IMG/VR virus record: IMGVR_UViG_3300011862_000003
Strand: one strand, 5' to 3'
DNA length: 64,000 nucleotides
DNA from: an uncultured virus (IMG/VR IMGVR_UViG_3300011862_000003)
Taxonomy: Duplodnaviria > Heunggongvirae > Uroviricota > Caudoviricetes
Positions 16,846 through 64,000 of the stretch are shown here, in pieces. The notes under the pieces are model-generated. The model was not told where the DNA came from. It saw only the letters and a list, made by a program, of their open reading frames with translations, and made no database searches. Each line of letters opens with the position of its first letter. Positions within the stretch are counted from its first letter, which is position 1. Made by a program: the position numbers and the translations under genes.

Positions 16846-16863
16846 GATAATAATCCTATTAAT

Positions 16864-16900: not shown

Positions 16901-16907
16901 ATTACTA

Positions 16908-21826: not shown

Positions 21827-21887
21827 CAGATTATTTATATACCTGGAACTGCTGTAGTCTCCAGTTATAAGTAGAGGAAATACAAAT

Positions 21888-22912: not shown

Positions 22913-22914
22913 CT

Positions 22915-23265: not shown

Positions 23266-23273
23266 AATTAAAT

Positions 23274-23303
23274 AAACCCAACCATAACTTGGTTGGGTTT
23301 TTT
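23274..23303 (+). terminator. intrinsic terminator
   Basis: AAACCCAACCA TAACT TGGTTGGGTTT TTT. Confidence 0.8.
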
Positions 23304-23413
23304 ATTAAGAATTATTAACTACTCTGATTACCACATCTACAGGTACTTTGGTAGCCGTGGCCTTATTAGTTAATAATTCGCTAAAGTTTATATAACAGTA
23401 ACAGGAGTATAAT

Positions 23414-24118: not shown

Positions 24119-24126
24119 ATAAATAT

Positions 24127-24573
24127 ATGAAGCACAGTCATAAAGCTATAGATATTATTCAAAAGTCTAGAAAACTATTGACTGTCGCTTCTTCTCTCTG
24201 GAATGATAGAATATACATTGGATACAGTCATCTTATACATGTTAGTGATGGTCTCTCTGATGTTAAAAAAATGAGCAAGAGAGAAGCGACAGAACTATTA
24301 GAAAAAGACTTAACAAAGATATCCAAACAAGTAAGTAAAGTACTTGAGAACGATCTAACTCAAAATCAGTTTGATGCAGTTGTTTGCCTGGTGTATGATA
24401 TCGGAATTAAATCTTTTATATCATCTGGGCTAAAAGATATGTTAAACAGGGGTGAATTTATAGAAGCAAGTCTTAAGTTTAGACAATGGTCTAGATACAA
24501 AAAGACCCCTATATATCAACTTATTAAGTCACGAAAAATGGAGATGACTTTGTTCGACACTCCTACTGATTGA
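24127..24573 (+). CDS. GH24 lysozyme-like protein, catalytic motif degenerate
   Basis: YIGYSH, LTQNQFDAVVCLVYDIG, SRKME match GH24; no Glu at the usual FEG position. Confidence 0.75.
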   Translation: MKHSHKAIDIIQKSRKLLTVASSLWNDRIYIGYSHLIHVSDGLSDVKKMSKREATELLEKDLTKISKQVSKVLENDLTQNQFDAVVCLVYDIGIKSFISSGLKDMLNRGEFIEASLKFRQWSRYKKTPIYQLIKSRKMEMTLFDTPTD

Positions 24574-24582
24574 GGTATAACT

Positions 24583-25888: not shown

Positions 25889-25973
25889 GGAGTCAATATG
25901 ATCCCAATTAGATCAGAGACAGATAAAAGATTAATAGGTCACTTAAAAAAGAAATCAAGGAAGAAAAAAATTC

Positions 25974-26417
25974 ATGTCTACTTCAACAAAAAGAGTTCCT
26001 CACGGACAATCTAAATACATTCAAGGTAACTTCTATAGTGAAAAGAATGACAGTACCTTCCCATATAAGTCTTCATATGAATTAGCATACTTAGAAAAAC
26101 TTGAGAAATCTGATAAAGTTCTTAAGTATTTATATGAACCTTTTGAGGTAGGCTATGTAGACTACCACGCTAAGAATAGGATGTATAGGCCTGACTTTAT
26201 GGTATTACATGAAGACGGTTCTATACTTATTACCGAAATTAAACCTGAAGCAATGCTAGAAGATTTTGATGTACAAGCTAAAGCTAAAGCTGCAGAAGCT
26301 TTTATTAAGGAAAAATATAAAGGTCTTGATATCAAATATAAGTTTATTACGGAAAAGAATCTATTTAAAGATATTGCAGACTATGCAAAATTTATTAAGA
26401 GGGTAAAAGAAAAGTGA
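25974..26417 (+). CDS. TnsA-like PD-(D/E)xK nuclease (T4 gp4-like head completion nuclease)
   Basis: YKSSYE...YEP..V.Y...YRPDF...EIKP. Confidence 0.85.
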   Translation: MSTSTKRVPHGQSKYIQGNFYSEKNDSTFPYKSSYELAYLEKLEKSDKVLKYLYEPFEVGYVDYHAKNRMYRPDFMVLHEDGSILITEIKPEAMLEDFDVQAKAKAAEAFIKEKYKGLDIKYKFITEKNLFKDIADYAKFIKRVKEK

Positions 26418-28042: not shown

Positions 28043-28051
28043 GAGGTAGAC

Positions 28052-30736: not shown

Positions 30737-30738
30737 AT

Positions 30739-47544: not shown

Positions 47545-47558
47545 TAGGAGATTAAGAT

Positions 47559-48230
47559 ATGGCAGATACAATTGACCAAGGCTACTACATCTCAAAATCT
47601 GGTACTGAAATCCAAGCGGTATTTAATGGCGTTAAATTCGGTGACCTGCATATGATTAAATATGCAGTTCAACGTGATGTAGCTAACGTTCATGTAATGG
47701 GTACAGTGGATGCAGTATCTGTAGCTAAAGGTAAACGTTCTACTACTGGTGCTTGCGTATTCGCAGTGTTTGAAAAAGACCGTCTACTTGAGGCAGTTAA
47801 AGATAAAGAAGTTTTTCTAACTAGTCATGAGTTAGTTAACTACGGTGGTTCTAAACAAACTGGCGGTGTTAATAATACTTTAGATAGTAAAGCTAATGTA
47901 GCTATTCAATCAGGTGGTACAATTCGTCCATCTACAGCTTTTGATGGCAGTTCAGATTCTTCTGTTTTCAGTAGTTTTGGTGAGACTCGTGCTCCTACAC
48001 TGATTGACCAAATCCCACCATTCGATATCGTATTGGTAGGTATTTCAGAATCATCTGGTCATGCTTCACGTATGGTTATCCATGGTGTACAATTTAACAG
48101 TGATCAAGGTGGTTCTAGCGTTGATGATTTATTACTTGAACGTCAAGTAACATTCATTGCTAAACGTATTAGTCCATGGGAATCACTAGCAACTTTAGCA
48201 AATGGTTCTTCTTCTGGTATTAGTCGTTAA
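47559..48230 (+). CDS. tail tube protein
   Basis: Follows sheath; AKGKRSTTG, DQIPPFDI, SVDD...TFIA. Confidence 0.8.
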   Translation: MADTIDQGYYISKSGTEIQAVFNGVKFGDLHMIKYAVQRDVANVHVMGTVDAVSVAKGKRSTTGACVFAVFEKDRLLEAVKDKEVFLTSHELVNYGGSKQTGGVNNTLDSKANVAIQSGGTIRPSTAFDGSSDSSVFSSFGETRAPTLIDQIPPFDIVLVGISESSGHASRMVIHGVQFNSDQGGSSVDDLLLERQVTFIAKRISPWESLATLANGSSSGISR

Positions 48231-48237
48231 GAAACCT

Positions 48238-48268
48238 AAAGGGAGACTCAATTGAGTCTCCCTTTTTT
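48238..48268 (+). terminator. intrinsic terminator after tube gene
   Basis: AAAGGGAGACTC AATT GAGTCTCCCTTTTTT. Confidence 0.9.
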
Positions 48269-48285
48269 ATTATAAGGAGAAAAAT

Positions 48286-49032
48286 ATGAGTAATAAAACT
48301 GAATATGATATAGAACGATTTTTAAATAAAAGGAGTGCTCCTGATGTAAGTTATGAACAAGAACAAACTTATATACCAATTCCTGGTACAACTGTAAGAG
48401 TATTATTAGAATTTCCTCAATACAACATAGATGGAAAGTCAGCAGTAATTCAATTAGATGATGTAATGACTATTTCATTCTCATCTCATAGAGTTAAAGC
48501 ACCTGTAACAACTTTAGGACAAGTATCTGTAAATGGCTTTGGATTAGGTACACGTATGGTAGCTGGATCTATTATCCGTTCAATTTTTACCACAGATAAT
48601 TTGACTGCTTTACAGGCTAAGATTTTTCTTGAAGATCAAGATAATATTAAAAATAGATTAGCAGGACTAGATCAAAACTTACCATCAGGTTTACCAATGA
48701 AAGAAAGAATATCCATCATTCAAGATGACTTGACGGCTTTTAATATTCACATATATTCTATATCAGAATATACTGCTCAGATTGGAGAAACATACACACC
48801 ACGAGAAAGATTTGATACTATTATTGGAGCTACTATTACTAATACTGGACAAGTCTATTCTATTGAAGATTTAATTACAGAGAGTACTATTTCATTTCAA
48901 GCTAAAGCTTTTCGTTCTTCTACTAATATTACAGATTATTCTAGAGGTTATGGAGAAAATACAGCATTCCCTACAGTATCCTCATTGCTAAACAAATCTA
49001 AAGAACAATCAAAAATTAATTTAACTTCTTAA
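48286..49032 (+). CDS. tube-like baseplate/initiator protein
   Basis: Tube-paralog motifs GLGTRMVAGS, DDLTAFNI, SIED...SFQA. Confidence 0.65.
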   Translation: MSNKTEYDIERFLNKRSAPDVSYEQEQTYIPIPGTTVRVLLEFPQYNIDGKSAVIQLDDVMTISFSSHRVKAPVTTLGQVSVNGFGLGTRMVAGSIIRSIFTTDNLTALQAKIFLEDQDNIKNRLAGLDQNLPSGLPMKERISIIQDDLTAFNIHIYSISEYTAQIGETYTPRERFDTIIGATITNTGQVYSIEDLITESTISFQAKAFRSSTNITDYSRGYGENTAFPTVSSLLNKSKEQSKINLTS

Positions 49033-49042
49033 GGAGAAGACT

Positions 49043-49711
49043 ATGGCAAACACTGTAATACCAATGTATGATCATTACTTTACAGCAGTAGATGTAACAG
49101 TAGATTTAGTTTATCCATCAACTGGTAATAGAGTTAATATTGATAAAGCTGTTGCTATTGCATATACACATAATGTATCATCGGTTCCAATATATACTCT
49201 TGGAACACTAGTACCTTATTTTTTCTCTAAAGGTAATTCCTTAGTTCAAGGTCAACTAGATATCGCTTTTAAAAGTACAGATTACATGAGAACTGCTATA
49301 AACTATTTAATATCAGCAAACACAAATTATAAGGTTACATATCAAGGATCTTTAAATAGACCAACTGAAGATGATCCCGACAAGACTAAGATTGTTTCTT
49401 ATGTGGGTGATTACTCTAGTGATAAGCTAGTACTAGAAGAACTTAATGCAATGAGTACAGAAGAGTATGCAAATCTTACACAAAAGATGGACTTACAAGG
49501 CGTAGCTATGAAAGAAAAATCTTTAATAACAGTTCCAGGATTATTAAACATAGTAATCACATATAACAATGCAAATTCAAATATGAGTGGATCTCACTCT
49601 ACTATTACAATAGAGGGAGTTAAATTTGTATCACAATCATCAGGAATCAGTTCACATGACGATACTGCGTTAGTAGATCGTTTCTCATTTATGGCAAGGA
49701 ATATTAAATAA
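49043..49711 (+). CDS. tube-like baseplate/initiator protein
   Basis: PIYTLG...SKGNSLVQG...SFMARNI, paralogous to tube. Confidence 0.65.
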   Translation: MANTVIPMYDHYFTAVDVTVDLVYPSTGNRVNIDKAVAIAYTHNVSSVPIYTLGTLVPYFFSKGNSLVQGQLDIAFKSTDYMRTAINYLISANTNYKVTYQGSLNRPTEDDPDKTKIVSYVGDYSSDKLVLEELNAMSTEEYANLTQKMDLQGVAMKEKSLITVPGLLNIVITYNNANSNMSGSHSTITIEGVKFVSQSSGISSHDDTALVDRFSFMARNIK

Positions 49712-50199
49712 TGGAAGTACGTAACAATAAGAAAAAAGCACAAGCAGAAGAAGTGTATATCCCACCACAAGCTACAGAAGAAGATTTTCAACAGTATGAA
49801 CCACAGATTAGTCCAGAAGATCAAAAACTAATGGAAATTCATGGTTCTCTAGTTGAAGTCTATGGGGATCAAGCACCAATGCTATCTCAGTTAGAAGCAT
49901 GGAAAAAACGTTGGGGACAAATACATGTTTCTAAGATAGGTGCAGATAGAAAAGAATATTATATTTGGAGAACATTGCTTCGCTTTGAATACAAAGAGAT
50001 GACTAAAGGTGGTGCCCATGAAGACTCAGATAGTTTTAATGAGATGCTAGTAGAGAAATGCGCACTATATCCTCTCTATGATTTTACATTCAAAAACAAA
50101 AGTGATGCGGGTGTTATTACTACACTAGGTCAACAAATTGCTTATAAATCTGGTTTCGTAAGTCCTCAAGAAGCACTATCACTAATCTACATTGCCTAA
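49711..50199 (+). CDS. tail assembly chaperone
   Basis: WKKRWG...YIWRTL..FEY...KSGF; position before tape measure. Confidence 0.65.
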   Translation: MEVRNNKKKAQAEEVYIPPQATEEDFQQYEPQISPEDQKLMEIHGSLVEVYGDQAPMLSQLEAWKKRWGQIHVSKIGADRKEYYIWRTLLRFEYKEMTKGGAHEDSDSFNEMLVEKCALYPLYDFTFKNKSDAGVITTLGQQIAYKSGFVSPQEALSLIYIA

Positions 50200-50209
50200 G
50201 GAGTAATAT

Positions 50210-50740
50210 ATGTTTTTAACCTCAGGAACTTCTTACTATTCTATTCCATTACTTAATATTAATCTTACATGTAAAAGTAAAAATATAATACAAGATCCTA
50301 ATATAAAATTTAAGTTATTGTCTTTTTCAGATCTAACAAAAATCGATATCTTATTATCTTCTAATATAAGTATGTCTGAAATTTATGACGAGATTTGTCA
50401 TAAGTGTATTTTAGGTATTCTATACCATGAAGGAGAGGAGATTGATTTTGAAAGAAGTCCTGCTGGGGTTTTAGAACATCTAGGTGAAAAGATCTTATAT
50501 CACAGTAGAGATATTATTAAAGATATACAAAAGACATTCGAAATCTTTAGTTCAAATATAACTTTACTAGATCAGATACAAGCTTTTGTATCAAGATATA
50601 CTTGTACACCTCTTAAAGAAATTAGAGACTTACCTCTGGATCAATTACTCAGGGATTTCAGTATAGTACAAGCAGCTTTTCCTAATGAAATTCAACCTAT
50701 AGTATTAGAGGAAGAGAAAGTCAGTAAGGTAGGTGGCTAA
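50210..50740 (+). CDS. second tail assembly chaperone-like protein
   Basis: Shares the PAGV/AGVI motif with the preceding gene; synteny. Confidence 0.55.
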   Translation: MFLTSGTSYYSIPLLNINLTCKSKNIIQDPNIKFKLLSFSDLTKIDILLSSNISMSEIYDEICHKCILGILYHEGEEIDFERSPAGVLEHLGEKILYHSRDIIKDIQKTFEIFSSNITLLDQIQAFVSRYTCTPLKEIRDLPLDQLLRDFSIVQAAFPNEIQPIVLEEEKVSKVGG

Positions 50741-53700
50741 TGACAGATTTATTTAGTTCAGCACAATCTGCTGAAACTCAAATTGAGGAGAATCGTAGAG
50801 ACGGTCTCCTCAATGCTGCTATAGCTGGATCTACCTTTGGTACTAGTGCTTATCTACTAAAAAAGTACGGAGGTGAAGATTCAACATTAGCTAATTTTTA
50901 TCAAAAACTCTTAGGTACTGAATTCTTACAGAGACAACTAAATAATGCGCCAACATGGATTAATTCTAATGGTGGTGTATTTACTAATCAGTCCGTAATG
51001 AAATCATTACTGTCTCAATTAATGGCTATCGAAGAAGCCTCTCCTTTACATGTACTTCGTACTCTTCAATTAAGTAATATTTTCCAACCATTTGTAGATA
51101 TAACTCAATCCAAACAAGAGATTATTTTCTCCGAACGTAAGATTCGTAACCAAAGACATTTCTATGAATCTCTTATTAATTTTGCTAATAAAGATCTAGA
51201 TGATAAAGTAAGATCTGCTAAAATTCAGCAGGCTCTGAAAGAAGGTATGGTTTATCGAGGCGGTAAAATGTATGGTCTTAAAAATGGAGCTATTGATTTA
51301 GATAATATACTTGTTAATCAAGCGAGATTAATAACATCTAATATTAGGCAAGGTGAAATTAATTCTCCTAATATGATGTTTCTTAATTTTACAAAAAATA
51401 TTGGAGCTAGTGTAGATCTAGATGCTATGAAGGCTGACCCTATTACAATTATCGGGGCACGTACAAGAGGAGAACTTATCGGGAAATGGGGTCAAAGTTG
51501 GGCAAGATACTCTTTAGAAATGGGTATGAAGTCTTTAGATAACCCTTTAGCAGGTTTTGAAGAAATGCTTAAAGGTGTTGGGGTAGATCAAACATCTTTC
51601 TTTGATAGTAAGTTTTGGAGTACAGCTAAGAAATTTACAAATATTCAATTAGGTACTAATGGCAACTATGATTTGTCGATAAGAGATTCTTTAAGACGTT
51701 CAGCTAAAAATGTAGCCGTTAAATCTACAGCAGTAGCTCTAGGTTATGAAGTTACTGATTCTGTTTTAAGATCAGTATCTGGACCTGATGGATTATTCTC
51801 TGAAGGTATATATACAGGTCTTACTAATCTATATGCTGGAACTAGAATTAAATTTGCAGAAGTCTGGTCAGATAGGTTTCAAGGTTATAAAGAATCTCAG
51901 GAACAAGCAGCACAAGGTTCAACAAATTTAATGACTCTAATGGCATTACCTTTAGGTGGAGCACTATTTGGAGCACAAATGAGCTACTTTGGAAGAATGG
52001 GTAAAACTCTTACAAGCAATACTGATGAAGCTGCTAAAATATATAATGTATCTAAACCATCAGAATTATTATCCAAAGTAGGTATTGATAGTAAACTTAA
52101 ACCTATGAAGAGAAATGCTTTCATAGGGGCTCTAGCAGGCGCTGCAGTAGCTCTTCCATTCTTGCCTGGGGCTTTGGTAGGGACAAGCTCAGAAGAGCTC
52201 AGATCGCTTTACAGTGGCGAGAAAGAGGTAGCTCAAAAAGCTAACAGATGGTGGATGTTTGGTGGTAGTTCTTGGGAAGGAACTCATACTCAATATTTTT
52301 CAAAACATAAGGTAGCAAGAGTTAATGCTGATGCAGTAGATAAAGTTAGATATGGGGATGATGATACTAAAAAGAAATTAAATCCACTATTACACCCTCT
52401 ATCATATATTAAAGATCCGTACCGCTATGAAAAGATGCATGCTGAAGACATGCCTTATCCAGTATGGGGTATGGATGTAGGGTATGGTTCAATATATGGT
52501 AAATTATATGAAAGAACTATTGGACAGATTATTAAACCAGACCTTGTTAATCCAGCAGTCAGAGATTTAGCTGAATCAGTGTCGGATGCTTCTACTCTTA
52601 AAATGGGTATTTTAAAAGCTACTAAAAACTTTATATTAGGTAATAAAGAACAAACTGGAAATTCTTTTGCAGTCCCAGTAGGATTAGATTCTAAAGATAA
52701 AGGCTTAATTTCTGATGGTGTTATGGCAGCACCACCTTCAGCTAGATTTAATCCTAACCAAGAAGGCTTAGGATTAACTTATCAAGCAGGTGTTGATTTA
52801 ATTGGTTTAAAAGGTTGGACACTATCTATGCCACTTGCAGCTATAGGTATAGAGCCAAGAAACGCTCCACTACAATTAGCAAGATCAGGAGAAGCCACAT
52901 CAGCAGCGAGGGATCTATTAGATGAGAACGTAGGGGATATGTTTGGATTTGGTGAATTTCAACGTAAGATCTTAGGAACATCTTCAGGATCTCTACCTGA
53001 AAGATTAAACCCATTAGTGAATGATATGGTGCATTGGTTACCAAGTTCTGATAATCAATATTACATAAACTTTAAAAAGGGTAACCCCTATGATCATATT
53101 AAGAATGGTGAGGAACGTCTTCCTGGTGTAGGATTAGCCGCTCTTAACCCTGAACTACAAGGAGTAGAACCAGAAGATTATTCTTTAGTATATAAATATA
53201 AGGTGTTATCAGATGTAGCTAAAGGCTCACGTGAGCATATTAGAGCTAGACAACAAGCATTATCCGCTTATACTGCTGGAGACTTATCTAAGAGAGAAGT
53301 AGAAATTGTTAAACAAACAATGGAACAAGAAGTAGAACGAGATAACAGAAAAGACTTTTATAAACCATCTACAGAACGAGATAGATTTGGTTTTGGTCCT
53401 GTTGGTTATATACAAAGTTCAGTGTGGGATTTTGTAGCCAGAAATGGTGAATCTCCTACAGAGATGTTAACTCCTATTAGACCTATGGCTAAATTTATGC
53501 ATAAGCGTACTGCTATCGAAGACTATGTTGCTACTCAATTAGGAGGTAGTGATGCAGGTATTTGGACTAACCCTTATTCACACTTTATAAAACCAGCAGC
53601 TAATAAAACTAGGTTAGTTGTAGATAGATCTTTTAAAGGTGAAGAGGTTGTAGAGAAAGAAAATATTGATGAATACTTTGATAAGCTAGATCATCTACGT

Positions 53701-54528
53701 AATAGACGTAATGGTACAGGAATGCAAGATTTTAATTCCACTGTATCATCATCACTTTCAGGATTAAATACAAAAGAAAAAGTATTAAAATTTAAGAAAT
53801 CTTTATCAGATAGTGAAAGAGATTATTTTGAATCTTTCTCTAAAGAAACTGATAAGAAAAAACGTGAAATGATCAGATCTATTCTCCCTGGAAATGTAGC
53901 TAGAGGTTATGAACAAATTTGGAGAAACGTTGATATAGCAGAAGAGACTAGAGCTAAAGGAGGTAGTGTACAAAAGGCACTAGCTGAAGACTTACATAAA
54001 CAAACTCTAAAACTACAAGATGTTTTTGCAGTTGCTTTATCTAAAGAAGAGTTGGAATCTGTCAAACACTCTGTCTATAATAATAGAGACAGCTATGCTA
54101 ACATGGGTTTTTCAAGAAGTGATCGTATTAAATATTCAGCCGATGAAGCTATTCGTTTAAAAATGGCAGATATGGAAGCAGCAACTCATCTTAGAAATAG
54201 TACTGGAGTACCCAGTAGTAAATTCATGGGATGGGACCCTAGATTAAAAACAGATGATATTAAAATCAGAACATTATCAGTTGGTAATGAAGATTTACGT
54301 AGATTTGGTTTCTGGCAAAAAGATGAAGATAGGATGAATCGTATACCAGCTTTAAAAAGTGAAGATGAGGTTATTCAGTCTATTGATAGAATCAAAGCAA
54401 GCATGAGAGCAAACACTATAATGAAAAGGCAGATAGAAATGACAATGTTTAATAATGGCTTTAAAGCTTCTCGAATAGATGTTGTTGATGCCAATTATGG
54501 TAATTTAAGAATACAAGAGGAAAAGTAA
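50740..54528 (+). CDS. tape-measure-like / ejected membrane-associated protein
   Basis: Follows chaperones; several Gly/Ala TM-like segments. Confidence 0.6.
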   Translation: MTDLFSSAQSAETQIEENRRDGLLNAAIAGSTFGTSAYLLKKYGGEDSTLANFYQKLLGTEFLQRQLNNAPTWINSNGGVFTNQSVMKSLLSQLMAIEEASPLHVLRTLQLSNIFQPFVDITQSKQEIIFSERKIRNQRHFYESLINFANKDLDDKVRSAKIQQALKEGMVYRGGKMYGLKNGAIDLDNILVNQARLITSNIRQGEINSPNMMFLNFTKNIGASVDLDAMKADPITIIGARTRGELIGKWGQSWARYSLEMGMKSLDNPLAGFEEMLKGVGVDQTSFFDSKFWSTAKKFTNIQLGTNGNYDLSIRDSLRRSAKNVAVKSTAVALGYEVTDSVLRSVSGPDGLFSEGIYTGLTNLYAGTRIKFAEVWSDRFQGYKESQEQAAQGSTNLMTLMALPLGGALFGAQMSYFGRMGKTLTSNTDEAAKIYNVSKPSELLSKVGIDSKLKPMKRNAFIGALAGAAVALPFLPGALVGTSSEELRSLYSGEKEVAQKANRWWMFGGSSWEGTHTQYFSKHKVARVNADAVDKVRYGDDDTKKKLNPLLHPLSYIKDPYRYEKMHAEDMPYPVWGMDVGYGSIYGKLYERTIGQIIKPDLVNPAVRDLAESVSDASTLKMGILKATKNFILGNKEQTGNSFAVPVGLDSKDKGLISDGVMAAPPSARFNPNQEGLGLTYQAGVDLIGLKGWTLSMPLAAIGIEPRNAPLQLARSGEATSAARDLLDENVGDMFGFGEFQRKILGTSSGSLPERLNPLVNDMVHWLPSSDNQYYINFKKGNPYDHIKNGEERLPGVGLAALNPELQGVEPEDYSLVYKYKVLSDVAKGSREHIRARQQALSAYTAGDLSKREVEIVKQTMEQEVERDNRKDFYKPSTERDRFGFGPVGYIQSSVWDFVARNGESPTEMLTPIRPMAKFMHKRTAIEDYVATQLGGSDAGIWTNPYSHFIKPAANKTRLVVDRSFKGEEVVEKENIDEYFDKLDHLRNRRNGTGMQDFNSTVSSSLSGLNTKEKVLKFKKSLSDSERDYFESFSKETDKKKREMIRSILPGNVARGYEQIWRNVDIAEETRAKGGSVQKALAEDLHKQTLKLQDVFAVALSKEELESVKHSVYNNRDSYANMGFSRSDRIKYSADEAIRLKMADMEAATHLRNSTGVPSSKFMGWDPRLKTDDIKIRTLSVGNEDLRRFGFWQKDEDRMNRIPALKSEDEVIQSIDRIKASMRANTIMKRQIEMTMFNNGFKASRIDVVDANYGNLRIQEEK

Positions 54529-54531: not shown

Positions 54532-57500
54532 ATGGCAATAAATCCTAGAATGGCATCTGTAGTAACAGGTGCTGCTTTAGGGGCATATACTAGTGATATC
54601 ACTGATAACCCTTTAACAGGTCTTATGAGTACAGGTATTGGTGCAGGAGTAGGTTCTTTACTTATTCTACCTAAAAGAGATATTAAAGATATGTCCCAAG
54701 TATCATTTGGAGCTAAGTTAGATAATGATGCAATATTAACTAGAGCTAGATCAGGAGTTAGTACTCAAGTTCAAACAGCTCAGACTAAGTATCAAAATAA
54801 AATTGACGAAATATTCAGTTTATATAATAAAGTTGCTGGTGGGGTTAATGTTACTGATGAAGAAAAAACACTATTAAGTGGATATAAGACAAACCTTAAC
54901 AATATTAAAAGTATTGTTAAAGATAATATTATGAACTTTCCTACGGATTTTGATACTAATCCTCAAATGTTTATTGATGCTCTTAAACGATTAAATGATG
55001 ATAAATTAGTTAAGCAAATTACTCCTTTACTGAGTGCTGATGAGTTCCATCTATCTAATCTACATGCTGTTTCTGGAAACATACCTATGGTTGGTATGTT
55101 TGAAAGAAGTATTAAAGATACTTCTAATTCAGAGAAAATTAGAGAACTTGCAAAAGTATTTCAACAACAAATGGGTAATTCATTAGAAGAAGCTACTGAA
55201 AAAGCTCAAATGATAGTAGAAAGATCTATAGGTGCTATTAAAGTTAAAAATGGATCAGTACTCATTTCAGACAGAGCTGACAAAGGGAGAGCTATTGAAA
55301 TACCTATTACACATTATGATAAAAATGGAATCAGATATCATAATGCAGGAGATGGTAAAGCAACTTCAGTTAAAGGATTTACACCTTATGCTAAGATGCT
55401 TGTAGATGAATCAGGTGTAAAAATAAATGGTCAATTAAAGACTGTAACTGCAAATGAAGTCTTAAGAGGTATGGCTCCAGAGATGATGTTACAGTTCTTA
55501 GATAAAGACATGCCTATATCTTCTTTAATGAAAGATATTAAAAGTCACTTTGCATACGATCCTAATGAAGTTAGTCATGAATTCATCGGTGGTGCTAACT
55601 TTGAAGCTAAATCTCCAACTTTTATTAATAATTCATTAACTGTAAAAACAGATAAAATATTAAATGTAGATGACTCTTTAAATATTAATAGTAAACGCCC
55701 ATTCAGAAGAATGGAACAAATGGCAACGAAAAGTAATAATGCAGCCGAAGCTAATAAAGTAAGAACAGACTTATACCGTTACATACCAAATGCGAGATCA
55801 TTGACTTTAGGTATATCAGGTAATTCCGCTACAGATATTAACTCAGCAGGATTAGGTACTATTAGTCTATTCCCACCACAAGAAAGAAATATTAGTAGTA
55901 GTGTATTGAGACAAACAGTTCCAGAAGCTCCTACTAGAGGGGCTCAAGCTATACAACAAGTCTTTGGACCTAAAGGATCTAATATTCTTTATAGTAGCGC
56001 ACAAGTACTTGGAAAATTAGATATTGCTGACGAAGAAGCATTTAATAAATTATCTGTTGCTTTATTAGGTGATAATTCAAAAGTATTAGGGGATGGTTTT
56101 GGTTTGTATAATAGAGGGCACAGTGAACTATTCGCTAATAAATCTATGAAAGATATTAAGATACCTCTTAGTACGAATACTATTATTAAAGATAAAGTCT
56201 TATTTGAAGCTTTAGAAAGCGGTGATATAAATAGTTATATTCAAACTAATGGTCCTATCCAAGTAGGGAATGGTGTTTTAGGTTACACTCCTGATGGAAA
56301 ACCTATTGAGATAGGTAGACAACATGGTTCAGGAAGAATTGTTAATGCTTTCCTTCAACAAGAGAAAAACAACTTAGTCTTAAGGGCGGAGACAGTTTTT
56401 AATCCTAATTCTGAAAATCTTGTTAAATTATTTTCAACAGGATCTAAAGCATTAGCTTCTGGTGTAAAAAAGAGTGACTTTGAATTACTAACTGCTTTAG
56501 GTTCATTAATGAATCAAGAACAAATAGACTTCAAAAATGATCAAATACACTTAGGGAAAAGAGCTTCTAATCAATTAAAATCATTCTTTAATAAGAAAAC
56601 TTCTATGTCTTTAGATGAAGTTAGGAAAGTTGCAGAGAATGATCCAAGATTTATGCAAAGTTTTGGAAATAAAGATGTATCTATAATTACAAGTGCTAAG
56701 CGTACAGGTATGAAAGATCTTCAAACTTTATTAGATGGTAAAGGAAATATTGCAGAACTATTACAAAAATCTGGTGCTCAAAAATTAATAGATGCGGGTA
56801 AAGATAAACGTTCTGCTACAATTGCTGGATTTTTAACTTTAGAAACTAAAGCTTCAGAAGATATTACAAGTCATGTAACAAGTAATTTATTAGCACCACT
56901 ACAGAAAGTAAAAGAAGGCGTAGCAGGTAAAGCAGACCTCGCAAGAATTAATACATATCTACAAAATGGTCTAATACCACAAGCTATTACAAATGCATCT
57001 GATCAGGCTCTTATTGATGATGCGATAAATAGAGTATCTTCTGCTTTCCGTACTGTTATGATATCTGATGGATTTGTAGGTACAAATAGAGATATAGCAA
57101 TGGATAATCTCTATAAGTTTGTTGAGATGTCAGGGGTATCTGCAGATTTATCTAGAGGTTTCTCAACAACTATAGGTTCTACTAACAAAGGCTCTTCTAT
57201 TGTAGGTGCTGGAAATAATGCAAGAGTATCATGGAATGCTTATACTAATATGCGTTTGTCAGGTTTCAGTAAGACTCAATTAGGTTGGTTAGGTGAAATT
57301 AATCAAGATCTCTTATATGAAATGCAAGGAGTTTTAGATGAAGTTAAACATAAAGGATATAGAACATCTATTAACGACCTTATATCAGGATCTGAAAGTG
57401 TTGCTGAATCTCTATTAGCAGATTCTCTACCAGAGGAACGTTTAACTAAGTTTGAAAACACATTCTCAGGCTTTGATACAAAAAATAATCCATATTTAAC

Positions 57501-59397
57501 TTATGATCTTAAATATGATAAATCTGAAATTAAGTCCTTAAACTTCAGTTTAATCAGTACAAATCGTAATGGTAAATACGAGGTAAACGATAAACAAGTT
57601 ATTAAAGAACTAGATAAACATCGTTTGAATATTATGTCTCTTGATATTCAATTACAAAAAGCAATTAATCCTAATACTAAGAAAATGGTAGAAGAAGAAT
57701 TACAAGATGCATTAAAAACTTATGAAACATATGCTAGAAGTATGTTCAGCGGTGATAATAATATACTTAAAAATGCTTTAAGTTTGTATACAGATGCTTC
57801 TTCTATTACTGTGGCACAACCTATTGGTGGGGTTGCTAAAGACTTAATCGAATCAATCGAAAGAAATTCAGATGGATCTTATAAAGCTATTGCTAATAAA
57901 GGTTTTATGTCTACAGAAGGAATAGAGCATTTAGCTAGTGCTATGGGTGTTAATAAATCAGATATTGTTTATCAATCTGTAATTGAAAAAGGTTTTGAAA
58001 ATTCTTCATTAAAACGTGCTGGTTATATGGAAGGTAGACAATTTATTCCATTTAGTATTATGTCTACTCGTGAACCTGCACAGGGTATTTTATCTAGTCA
58101 ATTTATGGAAGTTCTGATGGATCCTTCGATTAAAGGTGGTAAGTATTCATTACATGTAGCACAAGGTCAGTATGGTTTCTCAGTAGGTATGAATGGTGAC
58201 TTTGACCAAGATACTTTACAAGTTATTACTAAAAAATTTAATAGTTATGAACATGGGGAATTATCTAGGGTTTCAAATAATATACGAGAAGCACATAAAC
58301 CGTATCTAAATGTAGAAGGTGATATGTCACCTAAGAATCAAAATAAAAGTATTAAAGCTTTATCAGAATTTGATTCAGTAGCTGATTTTGATTCTTATCA
58401 GATGTTAGCTAGTACTAAAGGTAAAATTAGAAAAACATTCTCTCCAATGGCTACAACTATGGCAATGAATTATATGTCTGCATTAGAACTAGAATATGGA
58501 GATGATGTTGATAAGAAAACTTTAGGACGTATTGGTACATATAGATCTATTGAAAACTTGATTAAATCTTCACATATTGATACAGAAAGTTTTAAAGGAG
58601 CTACTCAACCAATTGAGGAATTACACTTAGCTAGAGAAACTTTCTTAAATAAAGGTGGAGATGTAAAATCGTATAAAACAGCTATGCAACAATATCTTCC
58701 TGATGTTCTAGGTATGGATCATACTCAAAAGAGTCTTGCAGCTGAAGAAGCTAAGCGATTAGAATTGAATAAAACTATTAACCAAGCTGTTGATATCATT
58801 ATTCAAGCTGAATTAAACCATGCTAAGACTATAAATAGAAAAGCTACTTCACCTGTTAGTATAGATAAAATTGGTAGTCTTTCTAACTTATCTAGTTCTA
58901 CAGAAGAAGCATTGGCTCATCTTGATATGTTTGATATTAATCGTCAAGTAGATATGAAGCGAAGTTCACGTCAGTTGTATCAAGGGGTAAATGATGCTAT
59001 AGTTGAAACTATAAAGAGTAATAAATCACTACTTGCAGTAGGTGCTGCAGCATTAGTAGGTATCAATTTAATGGGACGATCTGAGCCAAGTTTTTCAGAC
59101 TCGAGGGCAAATATGCGTCAACATAGTACGCAAATGCTTCAAGCTCCTAGAAACTTAGATGATATTGAAACAGGTATTGAAACCAATCCTACACGATCTG
59201 CATATATTCAACCTAAATCTTATACCAATTCTAAATCTGTTAATGTTCAAGGACAGTTTATAGAAGATGGTTATAATAATTATAATCAATTCACATCAAT
59301 GCTCGATCCATCTCTAGATAGCCAAACAATGAATTTAAACTCAGCCATATTTGGAGGAGGTCTACGTTCAGCTAGATTAGATATAACAGACTTATAA
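54532..59397 (+). CDS. putative virion-associated single-chain two-barrel RNA polymerase
   Basis: STREP...MNGDFDQD (DFDQD at 58198-58212); VKLFSTGSK lysine motif; inside tail operon; Gly-rich TM-like termini. Confidence 0.7.
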   Translation: MAINPRMASVVTGAALGAYTSDITDNPLTGLMSTGIGAGVGSLLILPKRDIKDMSQVSFGAKLDNDAILTRARSGVSTQVQTAQTKYQNKIDEIFSLYNKVAGGVNVTDEEKTLLSGYKTNLNNIKSIVKDNIMNFPTDFDTNPQMFIDALKRLNDDKLVKQITPLLSADEFHLSNLHAVSGNIPMVGMFERSIKDTSNSEKIRELAKVFQQQMGNSLEEATEKAQMIVERSIGAIKVKNGSVLISDRADKGRAIEIPITHYDKNGIRYHNAGDGKATSVKGFTPYAKMLVDESGVKINGQLKTVTANEVLRGMAPEMMLQFLDKDMPISSLMKDIKSHFAYDPNEVSHEFIGGANFEAKSPTFINNSLTVKTDKILNVDDSLNINSKRPFRRMEQMATKSNNAAEANKVRTDLYRYIPNARSLTLGISGNSATDINSAGLGTISLFPPQERNISSSVLRQTVPEAPTRGAQAIQQVFGPKGSNILYSSAQVLGKLDIADEEAFNKLSVALLGDNSKVLGDGFGLYNRGHSELFANKSMKDIKIPLSTNTIIKDKVLFEALESGDINSYIQTNGPIQVGNGVLGYTPDGKPIEIGRQHGSGRIVNAFLQQEKNNLVLRAETVFNPNSENLVKLFSTGSKALASGVKKSDFELLTALGSLMNQEQIDFKNDQIHLGKRASNQLKSFFNKKTSMSLDEVRKVAENDPRFMQSFGNKDVSIITSAKRTGMKDLQTLLDGKGNIAELLQKSGAQKLIDAGKDKRSATIAGFLTLETKASEDITSHVTSNLLAPLQKVKEGVAGKADLARINTYLQNGLIPQAITNASDQALIDDAINRVSSAFRTVMISDGFVGTNRDIAMDNLYKFVEMSGVSADLSRGFSTTIGSTNKGSSIVGAGNNARVSWNAYTNMRLSGFSKTQLGWLGEINQDLLYEMQGVLDEVKHKGYRTSINDLISGSESVAESLLADSLPEERLTKFENTFSGFDTKNNPYLTYDLKYDKSEIKSLNFSLISTNRNGKYEVNDKQVIKELDKHRLNIMSLDIQLQKAINPNTKKMVEEELQDALKTYETYARSMFSGDNNILKNALSLYTDASSITVAQPIGGVAKDLIESIERNSDGSYKAIANKGFMSTEGIEHLASAMGVNKSDIVYQSVIEKGFENSSLKRAGYMEGRQFIPFSIMSTREPAQGILSSQFMEVLMDPSIKGGKYSLHVAQGQYGFSVGMNGDFDQDTLQVITKKFNSYEHGELSRVSNNIREAHKPYLNVEGDMSPKNQNKSIKALSEFDSVADFDSYQMLASTKGKIRKTFSPMATTMAMNYMSALELEYGDDVDKKTLGRIGTYRSIENLIKSSHIDTESFKGATQPIEELHLARETFLNKGGDVKSYKTAMQQYLPDVLGMDHTQKSLAAEEAKRLELNKTINQAVDIIIQAELNHAKTINRKATSPVSIDKIGSLSNLSSSTEEALAHLDMFDINRQVDMKRSSRQLYQGVNDAIVETIKSNKSLLAVGAAALVGINLMGRSEPSFSDSRANMRQHSTQMLQAPRNLDDIETGIETNPTRSAYIQPKSYTNSKSVNVQGQFIEDGYNNYNQFTSMLDPSLDSQTMNLNSAIFGGGLRSARLDITDL

Positions 59398-59411: not shown

Positions 59412-62400
59412 ATGTCTGACAATGTATTAACTAAGGAAGAGTTTATTATCAATGATATCGAGATGGGCATTGCCCCATCCGATATCCAATTATTTGATGA
59501 TAATTATATTTTCGAACAATCTTTTTTACGTTCTAATTCAGTTTATTGCTATAGATCTAAATACTCAGATACTAAAGTAATTCTGAATTTTCCTTTTCAA
59601 ATCGGACCTTTTCAGGATAATGACGACCACAATCACACTGAAAATTGTCTAAAATTAATAACTGAATTAAATAATTATCCATTCTGCTTTATCAAAAGCA
59701 ATAGAATAAAAACATACGTCTCACCAATGATGATCTCTAGTACTGGTTACTTAATGTTTGCAGTAGAAGAGTTAGCTCTTGTCCAGTCTGCAACTGCTTC
59801 GAATATAATGTTCTTAGAAGTTACCCTTCGCTATTTTAACCATGTTCCTTTAACTTCTGACTTTGAATTTGTAGATAATAATACAGTTATTAAATCTGGT
59901 ACCAAAGCTTTAAGTAATAAAGACTATTTAACCTATGAAAGAGAGATGCTTCAAAGAGTTAGTCCTATTAAAGTTTCTAGTTTAAAAGCTTCATCTGTAT
60001 GGTCAGATTATATGAATCCTAAGATTAATAGATTATACGACAAACTAGCTGAAACTAAGATCTTAAGCGCAACAAGTTCAAGTACTAGTGAGTTAAATCC
60101 TGGGTTAGATGTTAATCTCTATCTTCCGATGATATTAACTAATGCAGCCAGAGCTAAACAATTAGTTCAGGAGGATGATGGATCATTTATTGGACCTGAT
60201 TCCAAATCTGTTATTGTTACTGATATAGATAATATCGATGGCATGTCATTACCTAATCTATTAACAGAAATGTTCAATCAAGATTTTAGAGACGACGAAG
60301 AGAAAAAAGCTTCTAAGGAAAAAGCAGAGAACATAGTTAAGGTTATTGATAATCCTTATTATTCTCCTGAAGAAGTTGAAAAGAGAATTAAAAAAGGAGT
60401 GATGGAAGATAATACAGGGAAGCTAGATAAAGAGTATGAACCTAACTCTATTAAAACAGGTTCTAAAGAAGTATTTATTAATTATTCTAGTGTATCTTTG
60501 AGTCAATTAGGATTTGCTATTCAAAAGATAGAAGTAAGAAAAAGAAATATGTTAGCTTCACATAAAATAGGTTCTTATAAACACCCTGTTATTCAGTATA
60601 TGGGTAAAGTTCCATCTAAAGTAGTTATTCAATTCTCTAATCCTAATGATGGTATATATGAAGTAGATGATGTAGGTATCGGAGCATTTCTAACGAATGC
60701 TTTTCAAATCATAGATGAAAATAGATTATTTTATCCTGAAGCTGATGTATATAATCATGTAAAAATTCAATCATTAGCAACTATTCTTTTAGGTACTGAG
60801 TCAGTATTACCTAATCAAAACATGCTTTCAGCTAGTGCAGATCAATCTGGAATTGAAAATGTTATTTATTCATTTACAGAAACTAATTCAGAAGAGTTTA
60901 TTAAACAATTCCAAATGGAAGCTTCTGGTGCAAGATCTATGACTAAAGCATATGAAGATATTTTTGGTATTGTTATTAGTTGGTTAGAGAATTTTAAAGA
61001 TTCTATGTCAACTGGTAAATTAAGCTCATTATCTAAAGATCCAAATCAAGTAGAAAATTCATTAAAGATCTTGTCCGTCATAACTGAGACAGTATCTAAA
61101 GCCCTATCTGAATTAGGGTATAAAGAATCGCTTGATGATGTAGCAATACAGTATGCATTAAAACTAATAAGTGAAGGTCAATTAGCACTATCTAATGAAA
61201 ATACTAATTTAAAATTACATAAAGTAACAGAAAATCCTTTAGGTTCAGGATTAACTTTATATATGTCTGGTGAATCCTATACAGCAACATTAACTGAAAA
61301 AGAGAAAAAAGAAGAAGTTATTACAGGAAATAAAGCTACAGGTTTTAATGGGTTTGTACAAACAATGCTCCAAATAAACTCTGATGACATAGCAGAAGCA
61401 TATTTACCAGGTATTACAGAAGCAGGTAAAAAAGTAGCTAAAACAGAAAAACTTAAACAATCTGGTGAATTAGTACAGAAAAAGGTTTTACCTGGAATCT
61501 ATGCTTCTTGGTTAAGTGCTTATAGTTTAGCGATACTTCAATCAAGAAGAGCAGCTAAAGAAGGTAGAACAACAGCCCTTAAAAACGTTATCTTCAAGCC
61601 AAGTAATATGTTTGATACTTATTTAATGAATGCTGCGGCACTTATTAATGCATCTGTAGATTCTGATCCAGCATCTGCAAAATTATCTGCAGGTCAAAAA
61701 GATTTCTTGAAAAATTTAAGTGATATTTATATTGGAAGCTTATATGGACAAAATATTGAAGACTTACATTTAGAAGATCTTTCTCCTGATTATTCAAGAG
61801 AGAAAGATGTACTTATTCAAAGTACTGATCCATTTTTCTTTATTTATACTCCTGATACTTTAGGTACAGAGATGATTGATTTCTATAACGCTAGTTATGG
61901 AGAAGAAAAATTAAATCCTACAATTAATGCAATAGAAGATGGTAAAAATGAACCAGCTATTACTGGAGCAGATGCTCTTTTAAATGTAGAGTATAGAAAA
62001 ATATCAGAAGTAGACTTTAATGCTGAAACTTTCCCATACTATAATACAGATGGAGAAGAGTATGCTTCTGGTTATGGATTCCAAGTGACTATGAATGAGG
62101 ATGCTAAAAGAGCTATTGAAAGTGCTTTAGCTAAATATGGATTATCAGGTGATCAAGAATTCCGTAGATATATGTATAAAGTAGCTCAAGTTGAAAGTGC
62201 TATGGGAACTAATCTTAAAAGTGGTACAGGAGCAGCAGGTCTATTCCAATTCACTGAAGTAGCAATACAACAGATTATGATGATCAATAATAAAGTATTT
62301 GCTGGGAGAGGTTTAGTTAACTTATCTAAAGAAGCTGCAATAGGTCCAGCTCGTGATTTAAAACGTCAAGCTAATTTTAGTAAGGACTTCCAATTAAGTG

Positions 62401-64000
62401 CTGATATGTTTATTGAATTATTTAAATACCATGGTGGTAAAAAGATTAATCCAAAAACAGGTAAATTTGATGAAGCCTATACTTTTGCATACCATAATAT
62501 CGGTATGGGAGGAGGAGATGAGATAGGTGCATACCTAAGTAATGGTAAGGCAAACCCTACTTCACAATCAGCTAAGAATGCTATGACAGGTAATCGTGCT
62601 TCTCACAGTAATACCAATGCTTCGTGGTATAGCATCTTTAGTCAAAAATTTGCGAATATTAATCCAGACCTTATCATGAAAACAAGTAGTGCAGAAGGTA
62701 TTCCATTAAAGTCTGCAAGTAATCAAGCAGTTTTAAGCTCTACAGGTACTAAAGCCAATGCACAAAATTTAGTTAATACTGCAATGTCTAGAGTGGCATC
62801 AGGTAATAAAACTGATAATATTTTAATGCTACAGAAAAATACTGTACAACAAAATAAACAAGTACAAAGTACACCTAAGGCTATACAACAAGTTGGTACT
62901 AAATTAAACGGTACCGTTAAAAATGTTGTAGATGGAGATACATTTGATTTTGCATACGTAGCTAACGGTAAAACTATAGTACAACGTATTCGTTTACAAG
63001 GAGTAGAGACAGAAGAGACATCTCAGAATGCAAAATATAATGAAAAGACAAGAGATTGGGGAGAAGTAGCTAAAGTAGAATTAGGTAATATGCTGAGGCC
63101 GGGATCTAAAGTTTCTGTCAGTATAACTAATAATGATCAGAAAGAGTATCAAGAAGGAGATAGTACTGGAAGGCTTGTAGGTGTTGTAACTACTGCAGAT
63201 GGAAAAGATCCTGGGTTAGAATTATTTAAACAAGGTCTTGCAAGACCTTTTGAAGGGTTAGCAGTATCAAGAGAATATAATGAGGCTCTTAAAGCTGCAC
63301 AAAATGCTGGTAAAGGTCAATGGAGTAAGCAAACCGTTGAAGAATATAACTCAGCACAAGCAAAAAAAGCTACAAGTTCCAAGAAATATAAAGCTGCAAC
63401 TGCTACAGCAAATGAGTCTGAAATCTCTTCAACAGCTAAATATAATTTTTACCAACCATTTCAAAATGGTGCGAGATTTAAAACATCATCTGATTTTACT
63501 TATGGAAAACCACGTCAAGATATCAAAAGAAATTCACCTCATAATGGTATTGATATAGCATGTCCAGTTGGGACTACAGTAGTTGCTGCTGCTGCAGGTA
63601 TAGCTCAAAAGTCTTTTCAACAAGGTGGTGCAGGGTTGTATGTAAAAATAGATCATGGTAATGGTTTTACAACTACGTACATGCATTTAAGTTCAGCTAG
63701 TGTAAGTTCAGGACAGAGAGTTGCAACTGGTCAACCTATTGGTTTATCTGGTGGTGCTAAAGGTAATGTAAATTCAGGTTCATCTACGGGTCCTCATTTA
63801 CATTATGAAGTTCGTTATAAAGGAAGACCTATACATCCATATTCAACTAAAAAACCTATTAGTGAATATACTTCTGGTGAAATTTATGAGGGAGATGGTA
63901 ATTTAGGTGTAGCTCAGGAATCTAAAGGGCCTTATATGAGTTTGTCATATGATCCTAGACCAAACATTAATGAAGAAAATACAGTATATAATGAAAATGC
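59412..64000 (+). CDS. large baseplate-hub/tail lysin-like protein (runs off window): SLT + SNase nuclease + M23 peptidase
   Basis: GAGGT RBS, ATG at 59412; in-frame VAQVES...GLFQF (about 62181), VVDGDT...RIRLQG (about 62931), HNGID...YMHL...GPHLHYEV (about 63540). Confidence 0.85.
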   Translation, partial: MSDNVLTKEEFIINDIEMGIAPSDIQLFDDNYIFEQSFLRSNSVYCYRSKYSDTKVILNFPFQIGPFQDNDDHNHTENCLKLITELNNYPFCFIKSNRIKTYVSPMMISSTGYLMFAVEELALVQSATASNIMFLEVTLRYFNHVPLTSDFEFVDNNTVIKSGTKALSNKDYLTYEREMLQRVSPIKVSSLKASSVWSDYMNPKINRLYDKLAETKILSATSSSTSELNPGLDVNLYLPMILTNAARAKQLVQEDDGSFIGPDSKSVIVTDIDNIDGMSLPNLLTEMFNQDFRDDEEKKASKEKAENIVKVIDNPYYSPEEVEKRIKKGVMEDNTGKLDKEYEPNSIKTGSKEVFINYSSVSLSQLGFAIQKIEVRKRNMLASHKIGSYKHPVIQYMGKVPSKVVIQFSNPNDGIYEVDDVGIGAFLTNAFQIIDENRLFYPEADVYNHVKIQSLATILLGTESVLPNQNMLSASADQSGIENVIYSFTETNSEEFIKQFQMEASGARSMTKAYEDIFGIVISWLENFKDSMSTGKLSSLSKDPNQVENSLKILSVITETVSKALSELGYKESLDDVAIQYALKLISEGQLALSNENTNLKLHKVTENPLGSGLTLYMSGESYTATLTEKEKKEEVITGNKATGFNGFVQTMLQINSDDIAEAYLPGITEAGKKVAKTEKLKQSGELVQKKVLPGIYASWLSAYSLAILQSRRAAKEGRTTALKNVIFKPSNMFDTYLMNAAALINASVDSDPASAKLSAGQKDFLKNLSDIYIGSLYGQNIEDLHLEDLSPDYSREKDVLIQSTDPFFFIYTPDTLGTEMIDFYNASYGEEKLNPTINAIEDGKNEPAITGADALLNVEYRKISEVDFNAETFPYYNTDGEEYASGYGFQVTMNEDAKRAIESALAKYGLSGDQEFRRYMYKVAQVESAMGTNLKSGTGAAGLFQFTEVAIQQIMMINNKVFAGRGLVNLSKEAAIGPARDLKRQANFSKDFQLSADMFIELFKYHGGKKINPKTGKFDEAYTFAYHNIGMGGGDEIGAYLSNGKANPTSQSAKNAMTGNRASHSNTNASWYSIFSQKFANINPDLIMKTSSAEGIPLKSASNQAVLSSTGTKANAQNLVNTAMSRVASGNKTDNILMLQKNTVQQNKQVQSTPKAIQQVGTKLNGTVKNVVDGDTFDFAYVANGKTIVQRIRLQGVETEETSQNAKYNEKTRDWGEVAKVELGNMLRPGSKVSVSITNNDQKEYQEGDSTGRLVGVVTTADGKDPGLELFKQGLARPFEGLAVSREYNEALKAAQNAGKGQWSKQTVEEYNSAQAKKATSSKKYKAATATANESEISSTAKYNFYQPFQNGARFKTSSDFTYGKPRQDIKRNSPHNGIDIACPVGTTVVAAAAGIAQKSFQQGGAGLYVKIDHGNGFTTTYMHLSSASVSSGQRVATGQPIGLSGGAKGNVNSGSSTGPHLHYEVRYKGRPIHPYSTKKPISEYTSGEIYEGDGNLGVAQESKGPYMSLSYDPRPNINEENTVYNEN

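Follow-up and report, generated by a model that had tools for sequence, protein, structure and literature searches.

An unannotated family of single-chain two-barrel RNA polymerases in the tape-measure slot of ME3-like and 0305phi8-36-like myophages

Why does a gene for a large RNA polymerase (RNAP)-like protein lie inside the tail operon of a phage that carries a second polymerase-like gene in its early region? The question is raised by positions 54532-59397 (+ strand) of a 64,000-nucleotide stretch of uncultured-virus DNA (IMG/VR record IMGVR_UViG_3300011862_000003; hereafter the window), which encode a protein of 1621 amino acids (aa). The window stems from a large phage with a contractile tail (jumbo myophage), kin of Acinetobacter jumbo phage ME3. 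The gene is the ortholog of ME3_36 and belongs to a real, unannotated family of polymerases in the tape-measure slot of ME3/0305phi8-36-like myophages. The best explanation of the whole is an active single-chain virion RNAP that is packaged in the tail, ejected and used to transcribe the early operon, and we hold this explanation to be probable.

Fold, motifs and conservation of the 1621-aa protein

The 1621-aa protein was compared with 50,697 phage records and gave two matches, both to Acinetobacter phage ME3 (38.5% identity over 99% of the length), where the ortholog is annotated only as 'hypothetical'. Pfam (E 0.01) and PHROGs gave no family and no tape-measure match. PF05183, the YonO/RdRP family, did not match the protein; of the five phage records searched with it only 0305phi8-36 was matched, and the ME3 record (G001) was not. 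A search of the ESM Atlas with the protein gave no usable match. A word search found 13 homologs; when 1.84 billion representatives were searched with a profile, 101 clusters (50% identity) were matched, 75 of them at E 1e-30 or better.

The motifs named in an earlier, sequence-only reading were all found: VKLFSTGSK at residue 631, STREP at 1178 and GMNGDFDQD at 1219, together with the terminal segments TGAALGA at 12, GIGAGVGSLL at 35 and LLAVGAAALVGINL at 1500. Motifs alone are weak evidence, as DxDxD occurred in 278 and R/KxP..DxDxD in 74 of 1000 shuffles of the protein. Conservation was measured in an alignment of 97 sequences, the query plus 96 homologs of at least 1200 aa (12 shorter matches were dropped). 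The catalytic aspartates D1223, D1225 and D1227 were kept in 96, 97 and 97 sequences, respectively. R1180 and P1182 of the REP motif were kept in 97/97, as were K1080, E1341 and K1345; K632, K639 and D521 were kept in 94, 88 and 92. The catalytic set was near-invariant down to ~19% identity. Only 4 of 102 Asp columns reached 90% conservation, three of them in DFDQD, and only 14 of the 1621 columns reached 95%, so that conservation is concentrated on the catalytic and motif sites. The order of these sites is presumably that of the catalytic residues in cellular beta followed by beta', and we take K632 and K639 to be the counterparts of the two basic residues (lysines) of the cellular beta-type barrel. 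The invariant R1180 and P1182 also place an [RK]xP 20-100 residues ahead of DxDxD, a spacing used as a filter in PMC10770324 Supplementary Data 4. These results indicate that the motif observation is real, because the motifs are conserved across the family although they are frequent in shuffles. The replacement of Gly by Gln in DxDGD, which had been pointed out earlier, is present but not special, since the residue here varies freely among the homologs (Q 31, A 17, F 10, G 10, Y 8 and N 6 among the 97).

The structure of residues 445-1440 was predicted from 51 sequences, with a predicted local distance difference test score (pLDDT) of 91.7 and a predicted template modelling score (pTM) of 0.89; model numbering starts at residue 445. 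This model superseded one from 15 sequences, which was poor at the active site (pLDDT <50 at model 789-798), had no Foldseek match at E 0.001 and reached a best Z of 7.9 in structural search; in BFVD, ME3 and, at ranks 3-5, further entries were matched. With the 51-sequence model, the best 17 of the 50 matches listed among 48,161 representative chains were all RNA polymerases (Z 8.4-10.2) and covered both barrels. The best was AR9 beta' (8-409) over model 495-816, with Z 10.2, a root-mean-square deviation (rmsd) of 5.6 and 249 residues aligned, and the 17 also included the largest subunits of Pol I, II, III and IV, QDE-1 (Z 10.0), RDR2 (Z 9.3) and P74 gp62. The beta-like half, model 1-447, matched the Pol I second subunit 4c2m_B (Z 8.5, rmsd 5.3, 258 aligned) and 8qma_A (Z 7.9), and stand-alone double-psi barrels matched model 641-811 (Z 6.5-7.9). 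Between the two, a clamp-like connector at model 481-639 matched the archaeal clamp 3qqc_A (Z 6.0, rmsd 4.9, 138 aligned). Both barrels lie in one open reading frame (ORF), and whole-model alignments were obtained to QDE-1 and to the phage proteins gp62 (P74), gp96 (P23-45) and gp66 (phi14:2). Foldseek gave 58 matches at E 0.001; apart from the two top rows, which are considered below, most rows shown were beta'-type chains at probability 0.96-1.00. At the sequence level, the best PDB match of the 51-sequence profile was again AR9 beta' (E 0.038), with REP/DFDQD aligned to RNP/DYDGD; a profile of 12 homologs gave no PDB match. The double-psi beta-barrel fold on which the sequence-only reading depended is thus present in the prediction, with barrels within model 641-811 and 1-447. 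An N4-type palm domain would be excluded by the two-barrel fold of the model. Since predicted fold, motif order and conservation agree, we regard it as nearly certain that the 1621-aa protein is a polymerase, and by fold and conservation it would be an active DNA-dependent single-chain two-barrel RNAP.

The domains, all on the + strand, were mapped from the model and the alignment. The chain begins with a Gly-rich hydrophobic hairpin (residues ~10-47; 54559-54672), in which G13, G17 and G37 were kept in 89-95% of the 97 sequences. A conserved domain follows at residues 200-440 (55129-55851), delimited by sequence conservation and probably the N-terminal domain of single-chain polymerases. The beta-like half with the first barrel covers residues 445-891 (55864-57204) and carries R452, R460, D521, K632 and K639, as assigned from the 4c2m_B match and conservation. 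The clamp-like connector (residues ~925-1083; 57304-57780), recognized by the matches to 3qqc_A and AR9 beta', ends in the invariant K1080 and leads into the beta'-type double-psi barrel (residues ~1087-1255; 57790-58296) with REP at 58069-58077 and DFDQD at 58198-58212. Long helices at 58378-58575 (model helices 839-878 and 882-900) hold R1300, K1301, E1341-N-L-I-K1345 and H1348; by domain order we take them to be the bridge-helix region. The chain ends with a Gly/Ala hydrophobic helix (residues 1496-1518), a linker and a small terminal motif (59017-59394), a candidate baseplate or membrane anchor. In the family, the median lengths were 455 residues before the modelled core, 995 in it and 173 after it.

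The tail slot and delivery into the cell

The polymerase gene is preceded on the + strand by the tail sheath, three tube-like genes and two tail-chaperone genes (45550-50740) and by a 1262-aa gene (50740-54528), the ortholog of the virion protein gp145 of Bacillus phage 0305phi8-36 and a rival candidate for the true tape measure. It is followed by the baseplate hub (59412-63998, +), which has SLT, staphylococcal-nuclease-like and M23 domains and runs past the window end. The polymerase gene followed the gp145 ortholog in 17/17 loci (4/4 close and 13/13 further), and the hub was next to it in 9/9 of the 13 further loci that extend so far; two duplicates of earlier loci were left out of these 13, several of which are near-duplicates. 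In 0305phi8-36 the same slot, between the gp145 and hub orthologs, is occupied by ORF146 (gp146, 2537 aa), which is annotated as 'hypothetical tape measure protein' and is a virion protein by mass spectrometry. The neighbours 145-147 include virion proteins detected in this way. The tape-measure assignment of gp146 is said to rest mainly on tail length (PMC2147016). The location proposed in the sequence-only reading, between a tape-measure-like gene and the hub, therefore holds for the two flanking genes, but the slot itself is also that of an annotated tape measure. Because the slot is conserved in 17/17 loci and corresponds to the virion-detected gp146, packaging and ejection of the polymerase are likely, and on these positional grounds we are rather confident that it would be packaged somewhere in the particle.

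The slot proteins of other members of the lineage were also compared. Those of Bacillus phages WH1 (gp095, 2515 aa; L037:14389-21936) and KLEB27-3 (gp034, 2434 aa; L038:8800-16104), annotated only as structural proteins, have RYP, DxDGD and QDxISSKK in common. They aligned to the polymerase family over 190 columns (E 5.9e-4, probability 29%), and the KLEB27-3 protein matched Pfam RNA_pol_Rpb1_2 below the cut-off (E 0.015). An N-terminal DEDDh-like exonuclease was seen by eye in both, and the two proteins look like exonuclease-plus-polymerase fusions. The Edson slot protein is 94% identical to that of WH1, and KLEB27-3 grows on B. australimaris. The slot gene of Moorella phage MTATph1 (L036:15330-22686) had an exonuclease match and no DxDxD, and an IS21-type transposase pair comes after it. 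Judged from these sequences, many members of the lineage have a polymerase in the tail slot, but some do not. No papers on WH1, Edson, MTATph1 or KLEB27-3 were found in the literature search.

Both ends of the polymerase had earlier been described as membrane-like. Their Gly-rich amphipathic character is indeed conserved in the family, but they are only moderately hydrophobic, with 19-residue Kyte-Doolittle peaks of 1.63 at the N-end and 1.39 at the C-end of the 1621-aa protein. The median peaks in the family were 1.25 (N) and 1.31 (C), compared with 0.91 in the middle. When a profile of residues 1478-1621 was searched against 1016 ORFs, the C-terminus of WH1 gp095 was the best non-family match (iE 0.012) and gp146 was not matched; by eye, the C-terminal hydrophobic helix of gp146 resembles that of the polymerase. 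Membrane tethering may occur, but we judge it less likely than not.

The favoured explanation can be put as a sequence of steps. The polymerase would be made late, alongside the tail proteins, and built into the particle via its terminal segments as the tape-measure-slot protein. On sheath contraction it would be ejected with the DNA, and in the cell it would transcribe the first-entering early operon. This operon starts near 21 kb and, read leftwards, takes in the second polymerase gene together with a series of small genes. The long early transcripts would be cut at repeated hairpins, and the second polymerase, perhaps with a third one seen in relatives, would take over later genes. The hydrophobic ends may hold the polymerase at the entry site; equally, they may be assembly or channel segments.

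Several observations weigh against this explanation. The protein gp146 is the only slot protein with mass-spectrometry evidence, and it has neither a DxDxD nor a significant match to the polymerase family, so that the virion evidence is positional. About 1000 of the 1621 residues form a globular clamp-bearing core, which must unfold to pass the tail tube. The virion RNAP gp96 of Thermus phage P23-45 was described as flat and clampless, for passage through the tail tube (bioRxiv 10.1101/2022.12.01.518664). Peaks of at least 1.6 occurred in only 13/97 N-termini and 7/97 C-termini, and most ends are below transmembrane hydrophobicity. In addition, the structural matches have middling Z values (best 10.2, rmsd 4-10 A), and Foldseek placed two efflux pumps at the top (probability 0.4, TM-score 0.08). 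Efflux-pump rows, which both models gave, were rejected as matches, with TM-scores of 0.06-0.09 and an rmsd of ~38 A.

Part of this evidence would also suit a polymerase that is packaged in and ejected from the head or neck as cargo, in a crAss-like or phiKZ-like manner, with its ends in the entry channel and no tape-measure role. Beyond the polymerase and its conserved N-domain the chain has only ~200 residues at the N-end and 170 at the C-end, which leaves little 'tape', and the lengths of the slot protein and the gp145-like protein showed no clear co-variation within the family (rho 0.45, p 0.22, 9 pairs). Gene position and the C-terminal likeness to other slot proteins argue for the tail instead, and as head cargo the enzyme would differ from the favoured explanation solely in its storage place; we consider such storage rather improbable. 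We also give little credence to an active two-barrel polymerase that is expressed from the late operon and acts inside the infected cell, in late transcription, priming or a packaging-linked step, rather than being delivered by the particle. The catalytic evidence is silent on the site of action, a tail offers little room for a folded core with a clamp, and the gp145 ortholog, directly after the chaperones, could be the sole tape measure. However, a late-transcription enzyme gains little from a site in the middle of its own target operon, the gene position is fixed in 17/17 loci, the 0305phi8-36 neighbours 145-147 include mass-spectrometry virion proteins, and the hydrophobic ends are conserved. 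It is very improbable that the two-barrel domain, instead of being a DNA-dependent transcriptase, works on RNA templates or in priming, or that it is a scaffold, catalytically retained, that pulls DNA in: the best whole-chain matches include QDE-1 and RDR2, and the fold leaves the template unfixed, but DNA-dependent enzymes match equally well, a clamp-like module is present, and the assayed single-chain phage relatives are DNA-dependent (bioRxiv 10.1101/2022.12.01.518664).

Early region, other polymerase genes and host dependence

From ~21 kb the + strand carries terminase, portal, capsid, sheath, tube-like genes and hub, and the - strand carries small genes reading leftwards. The second polymerase-like gene lies in this early region (16908-20597, -) and encodes a candidate non-virion RNAP with the motifs KYPA ... 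DCDGD. K913, P915, D958, D960, G961 and D962 were found in 10/10 aligned sequences. By Atlas features its product scored 0.95 to RdRP-family clusters (76% PF05183), which would place it near the YonO/RdRP group; it had no PDB sequence match. Early and tail polymerases gave nothing in pairwise comparison and E 0.47 in profile-profile comparison, so there is no evidence for a duplication. Of four records, three have the early gene: it is whole in two related genomes, G002 and G003, and G001 opens with its first 58 positions. Its profile matched 0/5 distant fragments, which are 12-40% complete and thus uninformative, and 0/4 Firmicutes phages. The pairing of the two genes proposed in the sequence-only reading is therefore borne out for close relatives only.

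The ME3 record KU935715.1, labelled 'complete', has its first base within the early polymerase gene. G002, at 99.4% identity, runs across both ends of this record and adds 17,111 bases (G002:C1:57459-74569) unmatched in G001; the GenBank record of ME3 lacks the full early polymerase because of this ~17-kb gap. The genome announcement reports 454 reads, states that the genome ends were unknown and does not mention a polymerase (PMC5000817). The isolate of ME3 has reportedly been lost (PMC8878043).

A third candidate lies outside the window, at G003:C1:143543-146959 (L020:3543-6959), with the motifs RAP ... DIDGD. It was flagged by a pattern scan of 93 long ORFs, which also gave chance matches, e.g., terminases. 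Its ME3 ortholog is split into ME3_309 and ME3_307, with ME3_308, a RefSeq 'endonuclease', between them, and this endonuclease-bearing insertion sits right after the RNP of RNP ... DxDGD. The candidate matched the early-polymerase profile weakly (E 1.6e-4; hhalign probability 4.7%) and had no Pfam match. It was also matched in Acinetobacter phage record MG366115.1. As a putative third polymerase gene it is a lead only.

Between the genes downstream of the early polymerase, an RNA hairpin with a 4x4 internal loop occurs twelve times (4814-15449, -), compared with 0 in 60 shuffles. In G003 there were 12 pattern matches (93718-139750), 11 of them with the lower stem, and in G002 there was one (64799-64854). 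Across 22 copies, 17/20 pairs showed compensatory change and one U-G pair was invariant. The hairpin had no Rfam match. N4-type DNA promoters are disfavoured as an explanation, since the loops vary and the sense strand keeps the U-G pair in every copy. The hairpins resemble the T7 early sites, and they are probably RNase III-type processing sites. An internal loop within two helical turns limits RNase III to one cut, leaving a protective 3' hairpin (PMC1540722). Such sites would point to long early transcripts, which agrees with the small number of strong promoters, and are silent on the enzyme that makes the transcripts.

The motif GGAC[CT]AGGTT (21023-21032, -), which precedes the early operon where the direction of transcription changes, is a promoter or genome-end candidate. 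It also precedes the early operon in G002 (56850) and G003 (87144). A C-rich tract at 20965-20975 is kept with it in three genomes at the GC-skew switch. TATATGTATATA was rejected as a promoter, because it showed no clear positional pattern in relatives. In a related strain (X2), contig depth was 335-374 over the early region (11000-19000) and 192 over 21000-31000, i.e., ~1.4-1.9x; this is a hint of a long terminal repeat, from one sample with flat contig depths.

Sigma70-like sites were rarer in the early 20 kb than in shuffles (69 vs 91 ± 9), and the best agreed at 10 of 12 positions. Sites with at least 11 of 12 numbered one in the window, 5 in G001 and 15 in G003; three crude shuffles of each gave 5-10, 18-28 and 19-27, respectively. 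Sigma70_r2 was found in none of the three ME3-type records, two of which are incomplete; WH1 has one. The scarcity of such sites, the missing sigma factor and the third polymerase candidate speak for independence from the host RNAP; two points count against it, namely two good sigma70-like sites ahead of a head gene in G003 and the continued use of host RNAP for late genes by P23-45, which follows the same logic (bioRxiv 10.1101/2022.12.01.518664). We hold full independence to be doubtful.

Other genes in the window were also noted. A DnaQ-like exonuclease gene with a hydrophobic helix at its end and only a weak PHROG match (26414-28042, +) lies amid the virion genes. At 24583-25888 (+) a stretch of 28 N (24875-24902) interrupts the frame before an intein-like segment (PF14890), and this is probably one intein-containing gene. 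Before the terminase, 28052-30736 (+) encodes a very basic 894-aa protein with a Gly-rich, hydrophobic C-terminal part, of which only the C-terminal 400 aa are kept in ME3. A terminal tag common to the polymerase and the products of 22915, 26414 and 28052 was considered and dropped, as profile search gave no support. Among the sequencing runs listed as carrying the sequence there were three DNA runs from one sample and no RNA run.

Relation to known systems and implications

The sequence-only reading had described a logic like that of N4 built from two-barrel enzymes. Two such polymerase genes are present here, but the logic is not new, as P23-45 already has it in gp96, its tape-measure-fused virion RNAP, and gp64, its non-virion RNAP (Chaban et al., bioRxiv 10.1101/2022.12.01.518664; PMC10770324). 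The closest precedent is thus this Thermus siphophage and not N4; the tail polymerase would work like gp96 and is not of the same family. Shared traits are a single-chain two-barrel polymerase tied to the tape-measure locus and a second single-chain polymerase in the early region, and the tail polymerase matched gp96 (Z 7.2, rmsd 5.3, 322 aligned) and P74 gp62 (Z 8.8, rmsd 4.2, 306 aligned). However, gp96 was not among the ten PDB sequences listed by the 51-sequence profile at E up to 10, so that sequence homology was not seen. The carrier here is a contractile-tailed jumbo phage among Acinetobacter-phage kin. The polymerase fills most of the 1621 aa, whereas that of gp96 is the N-terminal fifth of 5002 aa; a fusion to a tape measure such as marks gp96 may exist here, given the tape-measure slot, yet little chain lies outside the polymerase. 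The clamp-like module predicted here is absent from gp96, and the P23-45 pair clusters together, whereas the two polymerases here share no profile similarity.

The crAss-like phi14:2 gp66, a cargo protein of a podovirus, is another single-chain two-barrel virion RNAP with a non-Gly DxDxD motif. It matched in structure (PDB 6VR4; Z 6.5, rmsd 5.1, 404 aligned), but it had no sequence match to the tail polymerase and lies in another gene context. The YonO-like/RdRP-family protein gp99 of 0305phi8-36 also has both barrels in one chain and comes from the same broad phage lineage (PMC2147016, PMC7824862). It differs in lying in the non-structural arm and in belonging to PF05183, which the 1621-aa protein does not match; the early polymerase, despite its features, gave no profile match to the gp99 stretch tested. 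The phiKZ/AR9 system offers the best structural and profile match (AR9 beta') and a two-polymerase cascade in a jumbo myophage, but uses several subunits where one chain here holds both barrels. N4 likewise injects a polymerase that is followed by a second phage polymerase, but its virion RNAP has an unrelated T7-type palm fold, and none was among the 50 structural matches listed.

No description of the tail-slot polymerase family was found in the literature covered, most subscription papers being outside it. In the accessible text of a 2021 survey of 224 jumbo phages, only two group-3 phages, 0305phi8-36 and c-st, have a polymerase and none is given for the ME3 type (PMC7824862); the available parts of two Acinetobacter phage surveys and a 2026 review give none for ME3. 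The ten text-readable supplements of the P23-45 study contain none of twelve names or accessions for ME3, WH1, KLEB27-3 and 0305phi8-36; its compressed alignments, outside this scope, may bear on membership.

A far-reaching extension can be imagined, in which ME3-like jumbo myophages are wholly host-independent through three single-chain two-barrel polymerases of unrelated kinds. The virion enzyme, with its clamp, would itself be the tape-measure-slot protein, stored unfolded in the tail lumen; it would refold on ejection, be held at the membrane by both ends, and transcribe and draw in the first DNA. An early enzyme would be encoded beside the genome end, and a third would serve later genes. 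The slot of the lineage, including WH1, Edson and KLEB27-3, would then be a cassette for delivering enzymes, with an origin separate from that of P23-45. We regard this combination as unlikely.

The findings add a family of strongly diverged two-barrel polymerases that is both large (101 clusters) and unannotated, and a 'complete' ME3 genome proves to be without ~17 kb that include the early polymerase. Phages listed as having no polymerase of their own can carry two or three. The question is raised how a 1000-residue clamp-bearing enzyme passes the tail tube and refolds, and cultured relatives with the same slot (WH1, Edson and KLEB27-3) make packaging testable. If the enzyme is packaged, tail-delivered transcription, so far proven for one thermophilic siphophage, would extend to contractile tails.

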